Of a DNA stretch of 54,794 nucleotides, positions 32,118 through 37,976 are shown one piece after another. How positions within the stretch are numbered: the stretch's first letter is position 1; each line of letters begins with the position of its first letter. Made by a program: the position numbers and the translations under genes. The notes beneath the pieces were generated by a model. It worked only from the letters and a program-made list of their open reading frames with translations. It made no database searches and was not told where the DNA came from. The stretch is from an archaeon (GTDB taxonomy: Archaea; B1Sed10-29; WALL01; JAGHAM01): contig JAIOSL010000050.1 of assembly GCA_021107635.1 (NCBI GenBank), forward strand, positions 1-54,794, in the 5' to 3' direction.

Positions 32118-32165
32118 ATGTTTACTCCTCTTTTTTTATTTAACTACCTAAAAATATTTATAAAT

Positions 32166-32207
32166 GTTTTTTGCAAAAAAACTGCTGTGAGAATTAAAAT
32201 TTTTGCA
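32166..32207 (+). repeat. 42-bp element, copy A
   Basis: GTTTTTTGCAAAAA-aactgc-TGTGAGAATTAA-aa-TTTTTGCA; 34/42 identical to 34697-34738. Confidence 0.85.
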
Positions 32208-32537
32208 AATATAACTATATAGTCTAGCATATACATTCAAGTAGTATATACTCTAGTTTATATAATCTAATTATATATACTCTATTAGTATGTTTGTAGT
32301 ATATGCAGTATAGTTGATATTTTTTATGTTTTTTTGACAAAAACACTAGAATTGAAGTAAAAACTAAAATAAAGGCTAAATTGGCGTTTTTAGATGTAAA
32401 AAAGGGTGTTTTTTGGTTTATTTTGTTGTTTCATTTGTTTATTTGGTTTATTTTTGGAGAAAGAGTATGTTTTAGAGGTGTTTGAGAAGTGTGTTTTTTC
32501 TTGTTTTTAGAGGTTTTTTACCAAGGGTTGCTTGTAC

Positions 32538-33023
32538 TCAAACCCCTAACGCGATGAGTGATGTGACAAGAAGCTCTTCTTCAGAGGTTTTTAGGTAGTT
32601 GTAGTATCCAGTAAATCCTTTTCCTGTTCTTGAGAAAAGAGGAAAGTGAAAACCAGTAAGTTGGAATGCGCCTATTCTAGTTCCATCTTTGTATATATCA
32701 TAATCTCTGTTGAGTGGATTGATTTTTTCTTTGATGTAGAAGTGTGTTCCGTCTCCATCGCTGATTTTGATAGTGTTTGAGACGCCTAAGAGAGTTTTAA
32801 CATAACCAATTTTCTTATTTCCTTTGTAGATTTCTGCACGTCTATTAATGTGTCCGGTTCTATGAATTTTGTAGATTTTTGCGTTTGGTAGGCTGTTCAT
32901 CCAGCGTACGCCGATTTCTTTCTCATAGATGTTTCTAGTTACAGTGATTTTTTCTGTTTTTCCTTGTCGTTTTACGGACGCGGTTGCATCACCCAAGCTA
33001 CTGGTAATCTGAAATTCTACCAT
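32538..33023 (-). CDS. hypothetical beta-rich protein, possibly LURP-one/tubby-like
   Basis: Repeated short beta-hairpins (YKIH, EIYKGNKKIG, DIYKDGTRIG) and a C-terminal hydrophobic helix. Confidence 0.5.
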   Translation of the reverse strand: MVEFQITSSLGDATASVKRQGKTEKITVTRNIYEKEIGVRWMNSLPNAKIYKIHRTGHINRRAEIYKGNKKIGYVKTLLGVSNTIKISDGDGTHFYIKEKINPLNRDYDIYKDGTRIGAFQLTGFHFPLFSRTGKGFTGYYNYLKTSEEELLVTSLIALGV

Positions 33024-33029
33024 TCTAAT

Positions 33030-33386
33030 TCACGCTTTCCATCGTTTGATGAAGCTTCCCCAGATGTCGCTCATTTCGGTACAGCGGTTGGTGAATTGCT
33101 CGGAGAGAATCCATTCGCTGTCTACTTTTGTTATGAAACCAGCGTCTCTGAGCTTGGAGACTGTAGTATAGTATTCCTGGTGTGTTGCTCCTAACTCTTT
33201 CTGGAGTTGTTCCCATTCTTTGGATGGTATTCTTTTTCTCTCAACTATCATATAAATAAACTTCTGTGCCAGCTTGGCGTTTTCTGGTTTGCGATAGTAT
33301 AAGTTCTCGAGTATTGTTAACAGATCAGGAGTACGTTCTCGAGATTTTATTCGTAAAGTAGTTTCGTATTTTGCCATTTTACTCAC
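33030..33386 (-). CDS. putative winged-helix DNA-binding protein
   Basis: EWEQLQKELGATHQEYYTTVSKLRDAGFITKVD, an HTH plus wing pattern. Confidence 0.65.
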   Translation of the reverse strand: MSKMAKYETTLRIKSRERTPDLLTILENLYYRKPENAKLAQKFIYMIVERKRIPSKEWEQLQKELGATHQEYYTTVSKLRDAGFITKVDSEWILSEQFTNRCTEMSDIWGSFIKRWKA

Positions 33387-33972
33387 CGTTTTCTAAGGTT
33401 TCTTGAAATGAGTGCCTCAGGTTTTTCACTATTTTGCTTGAAATCTTGGGATCCATTTTTGATACCAAGTCGCTTGCAATGAAGTGGGTCATCAGGTCCT
33501 TGTGCTTAAGTTCTAGTCTTTTCATTTCTTGATCTAGTTTTTCATGGAAGAAGACATAGTGTTTTTCCATGTGTTTGATTGCTTGGGCTGCTCTTTGAGG
33601 GTCTTTGATCGTTTGTGCTTTTTGAAGGTATTCTTTGTAGACTGTTTTGTAGATTTTTTTGCTCTCTTTTAGTTGTTTATATCTTTTAACTGGATGATCT
33701 GATAGGGTGCTTAAGTGTATTTGGAGCCGTTCCATTCCCCCATGAAACCCGCCTAACTTTTGTTTTAAAATGTCTTCCTTTTTTTCCAATCCTAAATTAT
33801 AGTGGTGTTTAGCATAGTCCTTTTGCATTTTAGCTTGGGTGACGATTCCTGCTTCTTCTGGCACTCCGGGTTGCGGCACCCAGATTATGTTTTTTGGCTT
33901 TAGTTTTTGAGGAACTGGTTTTCTTATTGGGCGTCGTTCAAACGGTTTTTTTGCCTTTTTTGGCCTTGGCAT
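33379..33972 (-). CDS. hypothetical basic helical protein
   Basis: 197 aa, MPRPKK start, GGAGGA RBS. Confidence 0.7.
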   Translation of the reverse strand: MPRPKKAKKPFERRPIRKPVPQKLKPKNIIWVPQPGVPEEAGIVTQAKMQKDYAKHHYNLGLEKKEDILKQKLGGFHGGMERLQIHLSTLSDHPVKRYKQLKESKKIYKTVYKEYLQKAQTIKDPQRAAQAIKHMEKHYVFFHEKLDQEMKRLELKHKDLMTHFIASDLVSKMDPKISSKIVKNLRHSFQETLENGE

Positions 33973-34264
33973 GTTTTCTCCTCCTTTTCTAGTACCTCTT
34001 GGGTTTTGTCGGATTGTCCCTTACTCGTCTTTTTATTCTCTTAACCGGTACCATCTCACCTAATGCTTTAGCAAACTTCGTATTTAAACATTAACTATAG
34101 TCATTCTATATCTCATATAATAACCGATAAAAACGTGCATTCCTAGACGCGCATTAATCTAGTTCTTATCTTAGTAGAGGGGTTTTCCCCTCGGACACCC
34201 TAGTTTGGAAGCGAAAAGCATTCTCCAGAAACACTTGGAGTCATTATTAGAGGTTATATCTTAA

Positions 34265-34633
34265 TCATTCTACCCTTAATGTTGCCACAGCTCTTTCAAT
34301 CCCAGCTACTTTATCAAATCGCTGATCATGCTCTCTTATGGTCACATCCAGATCATATAATCCTGATTTGAGACCATGCTTGCCATAAATATTGAACACG
34401 GCTGTCTTGGTTTCTTGAGAAGACACATAACCAACGCGTATTCTTCTTTCTCCCATTAGACCTGAACGGTCAAATCCAAACTTGGATGGCGCTTTTACTG
34501 TTATAGAATAGCCTCTAGCCTCATCAGTCTTGTTGGTTACAGCTATGTGAAGATTCACCGGGTCTTTTTGTCCAACAATCATTCTAAGTGGAACAAAATT
34601 AGTTCGTATGTACATATTAGAATCATCGTACAT
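34265..34633 (-). CDS. small all-beta (Ig-like) protein without a signal peptide
   Basis: Alternating hydrophobic strands, VTN, GLYDLDVTIRE, C-terminal LRVE. Confidence 0.6.
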   Translation of the reverse strand: MYDDSNMYIRTNFVPLRMIVGQKDPVNLHIAVTNKTDEARGYSITVKAPSKFGFDRSGLMGERRIRVGYVSSQETKTAVFNIYGKHGLKSGLYDLDVTIREHDQRFDKVAGIERAVATLRVE

Positions 34634-34696
34634 GAAAAATACCTCACTATTCTTAGGCTTTCAAGGGATAAATAACTACCGGATAGTATTACTAAA

Positions 34697-34738
34697 GTTT
34701 TTTGCAAAAATGGGGGTGTGAGAGTTAAGTTTTTTGCA
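34697..34738 (+). repeat. 42-bp element, copy B
   Basis: GTTTTTTGCAAAAA-tggggg-TGTGAGAGTTAA-gt-TTTTTGCA; overlaps the stop codon of 34725-35009. Confidence 0.85.
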
Positions 34739-35009
34739 CAGTTGAAATTTTTTCTATCCTGCGAAGCACTGTTTCAAATTCACGGGCCAAATCTTCTCCC
34801 TTTTCTGTTAGCTTGACTATTTTAATTCTACCCTCTCTATCAAAGACCACTAGACCAGCACTAGCAAACTCATCTAGAACATTAACCATATGTGCGTAAG
34901 TACAGTCAACATCCTTAGCTAAAAGAGACGCATACCAAGTACGGTCCTTCTCAGAAAGCGCTACTAGAGCCCTTACAGGCTTTTCATTGATAAAAAAATT
35001 TGATTGCAT
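34725..35009 (-). CDS. MarR-like winged-helix protein
   Basis: YASLLAKDVDCTYAHMVNVLDEFASAGLVVFDREGRIKIVKLTEKG; GGAGG RBS. Confidence 0.85.
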   Translation of the reverse strand: MQSNFFINEKPVRALVALSEKDRTWYASLLAKDVDCTYAHMVNVLDEFASAGLVVFDREGRIKIVKLTEKGEDLAREFETVLRRIEKISTVQKT

Positions 35010-35162
35010 ATACTCATCCTCCAGTTTAAATATAGATTTTTTAATTAATCTATTCTAGTTTATATAATTAACTGTATATATCCAAGTTATTGAAGTCAAA
35101 AAAAGATTTAGAAAAGAATATTTAAGAAAGTATATTTTATAGTTGATAGTGAGAAGTGAAAA

Positions 35163-35571
35163 AAGTGAGAGTTGAGAAAGAAAGAACTAAAAAATGAAAA
35201 AAGGAGTAGAGTGGATAAGAAAGAGTAGGGACAAAGTAGGAAAGTAGTAAAAAGTGAGAATTAAGCAAACCAGAAACATGAGGATATGAGATAATGAAAG
35301 TTAGAACCGGAGAGGGTTAAGATAATAGAGAAAAAGTGAGAGTTACACTAAAAACAAGGAAAAAAGCAGAAAAAACTATAGATCCTTAAACAAGTGAGAA
35401 TTAGAACATATAACAGTAAATAACTAACTAAAGTAGAAAAAAGTGAGAGTTGGCCCCCGTGAGTATCTTTCTAACAACCCTACATTAATGCACCATTAAA
35501 CACCAGCTAACAACACGTAACATTACGTAAAAAAAGTGAGAGTTGACGTAATATTACGTAAAGTGAGAGTT
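35163..35571 (+). repeat. array of seven co-oriented AAGTGAGARTT 11-mers in a long intergenic region
   Basis: Copies start at 35163, 35252, 35334, 35392, 35441, 35534 and 35561. Confidence 0.9.
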
Positions 35572-35611
35572 AGAGCAAAGCCATATAAACTTGTTATGTG
35601 TAAGTGCTTCA

Positions 35612-36328
35612 ATGGGATTGATTGACTGGCTCACAAGAAAGAAAAGTGAGAAAAAGTCAGAATTAAAAAAACAACTTGAGAAGAAACAAGTAAGTGAGAG
35701 TACAGTCACAATCCAAAAAAGTGAGATCCTACCAATAGAAACACCAGATGTCTACTCTCCAACAGTTGAACACCCATTATTGACAATACAAGACAGGATA
35801 TCTAAATTAGAGGAAATCTACCGCAGCCTCAACGAAAAAATAGATAAAAAGGTAGCAACACGTGAAGATACTGATGAACTCAAGGTTTTGGTCGGTCAAA
35901 CCCTAGATAAAAGTAATGATATAATAGGTAATATTACCAATCTTGACCGGAAACTCGCTCTATTAGACGGAAAGAAAGAAGAGTTGACACGTAAAATAGA
36001 CACGTCAACTTACGAGTTGACACAAGATTTAAGCAACCTTCAAAATGTAGAACGCTCTATAAAGCTCTTAGAAGCAGACAAAAAGATACTTGAGGTATTA
36101 GGAGACAAAGAACTTAGCACAATAGAACTCTCAGAAAAATTAAGTTACACAAGACAGTATCTTTGGGGCAGACTAAAGCAGATGCAGGCGGATGGACTAG
36201 TAACGAGCTTTAAAAGCGGAAGACAAACCAAATACATAAAAAATAAAGATAAGCTAAATGACATGACAAATAACACGTCAAATGACATACCACTTGACGT
36301 ATTAGATTACATGTCACATGACGCGTAA
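35612..36328 (+). CDS. coiled-coil protein with C-terminal ArsR-like winged helix
   Basis: Heptad region, then KILEVLGDKELSTIELSEKLSYTRQYLWGRLKQMQADGLVTSFKSGRQTKY; ATG 35612 about 25 nt after CATATAAA. Confidence 0.85.
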   Translation: MGLIDWLTRKKSEKKSELKKQLEKKQVSESTVTIQKSEILPIETPDVYSPTVEHPLLTIQDRISKLEEIYRSLNEKIDKKVATREDTDELKVLVGQTLDKSNDIIGNITNLDRKLALLDGKKEELTRKIDTSTYELTQDLSNLQNVERSIKLLEADKKILEVLGDKELSTIELSEKLSYTRQYLWGRLKQMQADGLVTSFKSGRQTKYIKNKDKLNDMTNNTSNDIPLDVLDYMSHDA

Positions 36329-36388: not shown

Positions 36389-36412
36389 AGGACCCCCCAC
36401 AGTTCCGGTATT
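36389..36412 (+). repeat. 24-bp inverted repeat, left copy
   Basis: AGGACCCCCCACAGTTCCGGTATT; 21/24 match to the reverse complement of 37953-37976. Confidence 0.85.
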
Positions 36413-37952: not shown

Positions 37953-37976
37953 AATACCGGAAGTAGGGGGGGTCCT
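37953..37976 (-). repeat. 24-bp inverted repeat, right copy
   Basis: Plus strand AATACCGGAAGTAGGGGGGGTCCT. Confidence 0.85.

Follow-up and report, generated by a model that had tools for sequence, protein, structure and literature searches.

The sequence analysed here, referred to as the window, is the 54,794-nt contig JAIOSL010000050.1, which is the entire contig C36 of a 1.2-Mb archaeal genome (GCA_021107635.1; 60 contigs, 88% complete). The source organism is a tiny DPANN archaeon of the Iainarchaeum type, and its genome is designated G000. Two similar, directly repeated sites in the window bracket a 2.5-kb block of four minus-strand genes. The original prediction had described them as a 42-bp direct repeat and had offered two interpretations, namely recombination sites of the dif type or a composite operator for two proteins. 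The two copies are composed as follows.

32158-32207, plus strand: copy 1 (c1), with the first TTTTTGCA at 32168, a T6GCA6 palindrome at 32167-32180, the box GTGAGAATT at 32187-32195 and the second TTTTTGCA at 32200-32207
34689-34738, plus strand: copy 2 (c2), with the first TTTTTGCA at 34699, a T5GCA5 palindrome at 34699-34710, the box GTGAGAGTT at 34718-34726 and the second TTTTTGCA at 34731-34738

The core of the repeat, 32166-32207 against 34697-34738, is identical at 34 of 42 positions without gaps and with exact spacing, as originally claimed. The ungapped match grows to 50 bp (32158-32207 against 34689-34738) with 39 identities (78%). Past a 1-bp indel, a weaker likeness continues leftward (32141-32164 against 34673-34696, 18/24) and reaches the Shine-Dalgarno-like run before b122, the block gene nearest to c2. 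The elements follow the same order in each copy: TTTTTGCA(A5), a variable stretch of 6 bp, TGTGAGARTTAA, 2 bp and again TTTTTGCA. The two TTTTTGCA elements are spaced by exactly 32 bp in c1 and c2 alike, and a GTGAGARTT box lies between them on the plus strand. Both elements tend towards T5GCA5 dyads, and the first one is embedded in a perfect palindrome, T6GCA6 in c1 and T5GCA5 in c2. Palindrome, variable 6-bp stretch and the core of a nearby array motif are therefore present as first described.

The pair is the sole direct pair of 42-mers with at least 34 of 42 identities within 10 kb across the 54.8-kb window. In 20 first-order Markov simulations of the window, the best pairs scored 29-33 and none reached 34. 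The genome was scanned for further copies, and TTTTTGCAAAAA and TGTGAGARTTAA were confined to the two known sites. TTTTTGCA pairs at 32-bp spacing were likewise found only at c1 and c2 genome-wide. Dyads of the general form T5-N0-4-A5 are rare (51 in the genome) and the T5GCA5 form is unique to c1 and c2, which argues that these dyads are not a generic terminator design. The box, GTGAGARTT, is shared with an array located next to the gene wHTH94.

35150-35730, plus strand: array of about 9-10 same-direction AAAAAGTGAGAGTT boxes with a GTGAGARTT core, the boxes 58-111 bp apart

GTGAGARTT is found on the plus strand at c1, at c2 and in the seven array boxes with an exact core, always in the same polarity. 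The array lies 0.4-3 kb from the c-sites, while the remaining 1.14 Mb of the genome holds 17 copies on both strands.

The four block genes and wHTH94 are all encoded on one strand.

32538-33023, minus strand: b161, a 12-stranded beta protein with a C-terminal hydrophobic helix, specific to the order
33030-33386, minus strand: b118, a winged-helix-like protein of the AF_0843 family (PF27297, precomputed)
33379-33972, minus strand: b197, a helical protein with a basic N-terminus
34265-34633, minus strand: b122, a small beta-sandwich resembling immunoglobulin (Ig)-like or macroglobulin (MG) domains, conserved across the class
34667-34682, minus strand: probable B recognition element (BRE) and TATA box of b122, CCGGTAGTTATTTATC
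34725-35009, minus strand: wHTH94, a small winged-helix protein of 94 amino acids

Several winged-helix genes are thus located within or beside the block. The wHTH94 gene is present as a single copy in 28 of 41 related genomes and is conserved across the class. Its product matches AF_1382 (E = 5e-6), and a weak match to AspA is below significance (E = 0.14). Neither a ParA/SegA ATPase nor a ParB gene was found in the locus. The best-conserved protein of the block is b118, with a weak PHROG match to 'transcriptional regulator'; its gene was called as 115 amino acids, from an ATG just downstream of a GTG. b197 varies by lineage (absent in the related genome G001, 178-182 amino acids in the contigs L027 and L028) and has no family match in Pfam, PHROGs or NCBIfam. 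Here and below, G labels denote related genomes (G001 is identical to L011) and L labels further contigs, including metagenomic ones. b122 was found in 24 of 41 related genomes, and its AlphaFold2 model (predicted local distance difference test score 91) was matched by Foldseek to MG/Ig-like domains at template modelling scores of about 0.7. As modelled, the folds of b122, a generic Ig/MG-like sandwich, and of b161, for which no match was found in the PDB, do not reveal the role of the block. A literature search on AF_0843 and on Iainarchaeota origins returned nothing relevant. A tRNA-Met was the sole match of an Rfam scan of 30-39 kb, and the repeats correspond to no known RNA family. A homologue of b122 with 54% identity is encoded in an altogether different gene context on the 4-kb scaffold L035 (ENA ERZ23498652), amid small open reading frames (ORFs) and without wHTH94 or b118; it may be a paralogue or may reside on a mobile element.

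The block had been regarded as one unit of four genes. Downstream of b122 on the minus strand (34140-34262), a conserved stretch of about 100 nt contains the hairpin GAGGGG-AAAA-CCCCTC, with some compensatory changes across lineages. Judged by its sequence, this stretch may be a structure of the 3' untranslated region or a small RNA. It is followed by TTTAAATA, a conserved promoter element for b197-b118-b161. Because this promoter and the structured stretch separate b122 from the next gene, the block consists of two transcription units, b122 alone and b197-b118-b161. The distance from the b122 TATA to the ATG is 32-34 nt in all lineages read, and AAATAAATAACTA is conserved in six of seven lineages.

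The two repeats occupy different positions relative to these units. The box of c2 overlaps the stop codon of wHTH94 (34725-34727), and its second TTTTTGCA codes for the last wHTH94 residues (VQK). c2 is situated 24-50 bp upstream of the conserved b122 TATA, its palindrome 24 bp upstream, which places the site at about -50 to -85 relative to the inferred b122 start. c1 is found 51 bp past the stop of a plus-strand translin gene, and a 330-bp non-coding spacer separates it from the 3' end of b161. Both flanks of c1 carry recognizable features.

32123-32164, plus strand: left extension of c1, resembling the promoter and leader of b122 (TAACTACC; GAGGAG Shine-Dalgarno-like run)
32208-32537, no strand assigned: conserved non-coding spacer from c1 to the 3' end of b161, with a TATATA-rich tract (32207-32326), a third dyad-like element and T-rich motifs ending in TTTTACCAAGGG

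No ORF follows the left extension on the minus strand, and the extension is not kept in L028, L027 or G001. By its distribution it is probably a conversion tract of the G000 lineage. A segmental duplication was also considered, in which the c1 region would correspond to c2 plus the wHTH94 cassette minus the gene. A loose-gap alignment was convincing only for about 90 bp at the repeats and for one 21-nt TATA-containing motif, and this origin is not supported. The dyad-like element of the spacer (32328-32345) reads T7GACA5 in the window and (T)5-8 N3-4 (A)4-6 in relatives. At its right end (about 32515-32537) the spacer holds a GTTTTAACCnGGGG-like motif that in other families adjoins a divergent helix-turn-helix (HTH) gene of about 135 amino acids, absent from the source family.

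The source family comprises only two genomes in GTDB. A protein scan of genome contigs for further members found none, and a metagenome scan yielded two short contigs. Within the family, c1 is present at the same position in four lineages.

c1 in G000: TTTTTTGCAAAAAAACTGCTGTGAGAATTAAAATTTTTGCA
c1 in G001: TTTTTTGCATTTTTACGGTTGTGAGACTTAACGTTTTTGCA
c1 in L027: CTTTTTGCAAAAAAAGAGGTGTGAGAGTTAAAATTTTTGCA
c1 in L028: TTTTTTGCATAAAATCTGTTGTGAGGGTTAAAGTTTTTGCA

Invariant among the four are TTTTTGCA, TGTGAG, TTAA and the second TTTTTGCA, and the 32-bp spacing is fixed. Depending on the lineage, either the first or the second TTTTTGCA is lengthened to a perfect T5GCA5 dyad. In an alignment of the region between translin and b161, positions 32168-32225 are the most conserved part, with 36 of 60 columns invariant compared to 25% overall. 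A box-only ortholog of c1 (AAAAGTGAGAGTTAAAGTGAAAAATATA) was found in G004, which belongs to a different family. Left of c1, neither a conserved small ORF nor a TATA is common to the lineages compared. For c2, seven lineages retain the core TTGCNN-(0 or 10 nt)-GTGAGAGTT, which lies between the wHTH94 stop and the conserved TATA AAATAAATAACTA. A long form, which agrees with c1 and also has its 10-nt insert and second TTTTTTGCA, is restricted to G000 and its closest relatives L025 and L038. In the short form (L034, L037, L027 and G001), (T)TTGC(A/G)(A/C) directly abuts GTGAGAGTT. Among 185,579 species, each represented by one genome in a DNA-pattern scan, only the sister genus ('Candidatus Iainarchaeum archaeon' AUK230) was found to carry the long composite.

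Because the three closest lineages alone have the long c2, recent gene conversion has probably made c2 more like c1. The 78% identity between the copies is confined to one sub-lineage and is probably secondary, most simply a conversion of c2 by c1. According to the sequence comparison, the ancient and universal feature is that each side of the block has one array-type box next to a TTGCA element, with the polarity of the array in every case. Lack of conservation had been named at the outset as an observation that would speak against a function. Instead, c1 is kept in four lineages and the c2 core in seven, and this pattern indicates that the composite module is under purifying selection in the family. 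The same data bear on the view that the repeats are a functionless relic, that is, a chance-kept duplication or a gene-conversion product of the region upstream of b122. The restriction of the high c1-c2 identity and of the leftward extension to G000 and its closest relatives would suit a relic. However, no other part of the intergenic region is as well conserved as c1 across the four lineages, its box reaches another family, and the c2 core persists over seven lineages, which leaves a relic very unlikely.

Gene order was compared among relatives. b118 and b161 are present in 10 of 12 other sampled genomes of the order, always beside wHTH94. A co-directional order on one strand, wHTH94 > b122 > (b197) > b118 > b161, is found in G000, G001 and the metagenomic contigs L025, L027, L034 and L037. 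It is also found in L030 and L031, two other assemblies of the G000 strain. In all other relatives from the order or class (G002-G005, G007, G009, G011, G012, G015, G016, G018-G020, G024, G026 and G040), the block converges on wHTH94, with the b161 end beside the wHTH94 end. By outgroup comparison, the co-directional order is derived. In G004, which has the ancestral order, the same spacer, first AT-rich and then T-rich, begins with the c1-like box AAAAGTGAGAGTTAAAGTGAAAAATATA. Relative to the array, the spacer has an unchanged orientation, but it abuts the b122 promoter. It follows that only the coding block was turned, while c1 and the spacer stayed in place. c1 is thereby 330 bp away from the left inversion junction and c2 is located at the right one.

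A rival interpretation is that c1 and c2 serve site-specific recombination, as dif-type Xer sites or as attL and attR of an integrated element, by which the 2.5-kb interval would be excised or inverted. The repeats are direct, bracket a gene block and each contain a palindrome and a variable 6-bp stretch; moreover, the block is inverted in the source family relative to all other relatives, with c2 at one junction. However, direct repeats cannot mediate an inversion, so the inversion does not rescue a recombination function. In addition, c1 is displaced from the left junction, and the spacer in between kept its orientation. Archaeal dif consists of 11-bp inverted arms around a 6-bp spacer, is present as a single copy in the terminus region and is acted on by XerA (PMC2958812). 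The c-sites resemble Xer/dif in being short sites with a palindromic component and a variable 6-bp stretch, located in a non-coding region. They differ in that TTTTTGCAAAAA and TGTGAGARTTAA, which flank the variable 6 bp, are not mutual inverted copies. The only dyad in the repeat, T5GCA5, has no spacer. Moreover, there are two copies, and the locus is linked to orc1/cdc6, with elements similar to origin recognition boxes (ORBs) nearby.

A tyrosine recombinase was not found either. The search for PF00589 (Phage_integrase) in the 88%-complete G000 assembly gave no match, whereas all 14 of 14 control genomes were matched. In and around the block, searches in Pfam, PHROGs and NCBIfam detected neither an integrase or transposase nor a phage hallmark. 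Boundaries of an integrated element were rejected for the same lack of an integrase and because the block genes are core genes syntenic order- or class-wide. A near-identical att core is also missing, as the copies match at 39 of 50 positions and the two sites of distant family members are much less alike. The interval is retained in L030 and L031, which are independent assemblies of the G000 strain. In the short contigs L032 (JGI 3300024108) and L033 (Logan SRR7181625), the sequence is identical to the window until inside b122 (about 34300) and then continues in the inverted interior of wHTH245 (about 35838), a coiled-coil winged-helix gene. This fold-back junction, the single aberrant type seen, is away from c1 and c2 and is probably an amplification or an assembly chimera. 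With arms that are not inverted, two copies, no Phage_integrase gene detected in the 88%-complete assembly and an interval that is not mobile, the dif-type interpretation of the original prediction is not supported; recombination at these sites appears highly improbable.

The repeats are situated beside what is likely the replication-origin region.

35024-35143, no strand assigned: 120-bp duplex with the lowest stability in the contig, 84% AT, located between the wHTH94 start and the array
36394-36412, plus strand, and 37953-37971, minus strand: ORB-like inverted pair CCCCCnnAGTTCCnGTATT, with a G-string and TTCC, 1.7-3.2 kb from the locus

The 120-bp duplex that ranks second-lowest in stability within the contig (32207-32326) starts at the right edge of c1, and the least stable one ends where the array starts. 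Both deviate by more than 4 standard deviations from the mean, and of the six tracts with the lowest stability in the contig, five are found within 32-38 kb. At the outer edge of the conserved spacer, c1 borders directly on the tract that ranks second in ease of melting. The tracts beside c1 and the array share the 21-nt TATA-containing motif at 19 of 21 positions (32246-32266 against 35048-35068). An ORB-like element is also found after the coiled-coil winged-helix gene in G001, G003, G020 and L034. From its sequence, the inverted pair is a candidate Orc1-binding origin element. In 10 relatives, orc1/cdc6 is located 11-40 kb from the wHTH94/array locus on the same contig (G003, G005, G007, G009, G015, G016, G019, G020, G035 and G038), and in an eleventh (G040) the distance is 75 kb. 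In G000, orc1 is found on another contig, C21. Given the linkage in relatives, the locus appears to be origin-proximal rather than terminus-linked.

On this basis, c1, together with the array opposite, could represent sites for initiator or accessory proteins that flank the easily melted unwinding tracts of a chromosomal origin. The position of both tracts directly at c1 and at the array, the clustering of unstable tracts, the inverted ORB-like pair at 36394 and 37971, which is conserved in relatives, and the distance of tens of kb to orc1 recall an archaeal oriC with ORBs and a duplex unwinding element. The c-sites and array boxes, in contrast, lack the ORB consensus and resemble neither ORB nor mini-ORB. 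All boxes point in one direction instead of forming inverted pairs around an unwinding element. The AT-rich tracts are equally plausible as TATA-rich promoter regions, and orc1 is not adjacent in G000. An origin-accessory function of the sites is thus rated as unlikely.

The T-rich strands of the dyads raise the question of transcription termination. On the minus strand, CCCCCATTTTTGC is located 16 nt past the wHTH94 stop and forms a run of five or more T residues, as oligo-T terminators do. Similar T5 runs follow wHTH94 in G001, L027 and L037 but not in L025 or L034. From its sequence and position, the minus-strand T5 run in c2 is a plausible wHTH94 terminator. Taken further, the repeats might be pure transcription punctuation, in which oligo-T terminators for both strands and a duplicated promoter act without a binding protein of their own. 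In that case, the T5GCA5 runs would have been gained in the family after the inversion of the block had placed wHTH94 head-to-tail with b122 and had made b161 and translin convergent. Runs of T5-T7 on the correct strand just past the wHTH94 stop in G000, G001, L027 and L037 agree with this view, as does the restriction of the TTTTTGCA elements to the family with the inverted block (G004 and G002 are without them). The likeness of the left flank of c1 in G000 to the b122 promoter and leader would supply the duplicated promoter. On the other hand, GCA and the exact 32-bp spacing are invariant, and termination needs neither. T5GCA5 is not used elsewhere among about 1,300 genes. Translin already has a T7 run before c1, and the spacer provides b161 with minus-strand T5-T6 runs before c1 is reached. 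There is no gene on the plus strand whose transcription the plus-strand T runs of c2 could end, and the conserved GTGAGAGTTAA box is unaccounted for. Punctuation alone is therefore regarded as an improbable explanation.

The interpretation favoured here, with a confidence only somewhat better than even, is that c1 and c2 are a composite protein-binding module, a putative operator or architectural site that couples the block to the protein binding the array. The module consists of one asymmetric GTGAGAGTT(AA) box and two TTTTTGCA elements 32 bp apart, which would correspond to about three helical turns. A composite operator for two proteins, the second possibility raised by the original prediction, is plausible in light of the sequence. 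It fits two TTTTTGCA elements around an array-type box, the core and polarity shared with the array, the conservation of the sites while their flanks have diverged, and the position of c2 in the control region of b122, upstream of the core promoter. In such an arrangement, the array-binding protein (wHTH94 or the coiled-coil wHTH245) would also bind the boxes of the c-sites, and a dimeric winged-helix protein (b118 or wHTH94) would bind the dyads. In archaea, the region upstream of BRE and TATA is the site of activators or roadblocks, not of repressors that block TBP and TFB. A complex bound at c2 would sit about 25-50 bp before the TATA and modulate transcription of b122, and the minus-strand T5 run of c2 would help to end wHTH94 transcription. 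Together, c1 and c2 would delimit the 2.5-kb block, possibly with its two edges bridged, and would connect it to the array.

Several observations weigh against this interpretation. Where c2 has b122 on one side, c1 has neither a conserved gene nor a conserved TATA in the equivalent position. On its 5' side, the box is flanked by G/C-rich sequence plus T at the c-sites, as against A5 in the array boxes. The array boxes of G001 have drifted to GTGAGTGTT, a change that its c-boxes do not share, so array and c-sites need not be bound by one and the same protein. Clean TTTTTGCA elements are missing from c2 of G001, and part of c2 is under the coding constraint of wHTH94.

Among known systems, the closest logic is that of StbA and stbDR of plasmid R388, where an HTH gene lies beside an array of ten direct repeats and further copies serve as operators in nearby promoters (bioRxiv 10.1101/2022.04.29.490116). 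The locus described here likewise combines a small HTH gene with about ten short same-direction repeats, outlying copies in promoter regions and no partner nucleoside triphosphatase (NTPase). The stbDRs, however, are 9-bp repeats in a strict 11-bp register, and they require a minimum of two neighbouring copies. In the present locus, 58-111 bp separate the array boxes and each c-site has a single box flanked by TTTTTGCA; the locus is chromosomal and archaeal, and a sequence relation is absent. The likeness is therefore one of possible working, by analogy, and not of family membership. A second comparison concerns AspA of pNOB8 and SegB of Sulfolobus, as wHTH94 is a winged-helix protein of AspA size (94 amino acids) with the weak similarity given above (E = 0.14). 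The binding sites of AspA and SegB are short, (imperfectly) palindromic and close to the genes of these proteins. The present locus differs in lacking a ParA/SegA ATPase or ParB, and its T5GCA5 dyads are found at the 3' end of wHTH94 and not upstream.

A more far-reaching proposal is a chromosome-organising system specific to Iainarchaeia-type DPANN archaea, so far undescribed and without an NTPase, which would be centromere-like or origin-accessory and would have its polar docking sites in c1, c2 and the array. wHTH94, b118 and wHTH245 would coat the same-direction boxes by the origin, and the composites would loop or insulate the 2.5-kb block, which would encode part of the machinery. This proposal is conceivable but doubtful.

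To our knowledge, there is no experimental knowledge of origin architecture, chromosome segregation or gene control in Iainarchaeota or in most DPANN archaea. The repeats provide defined, phylogenetically supported DNA probes for such work, namely TTTTTGCA-N10-TGTGAGAGTTAA-N2-TTTTTGCA and the short form TTGCAAGTGAGAGTTA. wHTH94, b118 and wHTH245, encoded beside an origin-linked array, are the candidate binders predicted from sequence. The tempting annotation as a dif or att site, or of the block as an excisable island, is removed. The wider locus, with its array, ORB-like pair, winged-helix genes and orc1 linkage, is more interesting than the repeat pair itself. Outlying operator- or centromere-like sites are known in kind, and the present ones differ from these and belong to an unstudied lineage.

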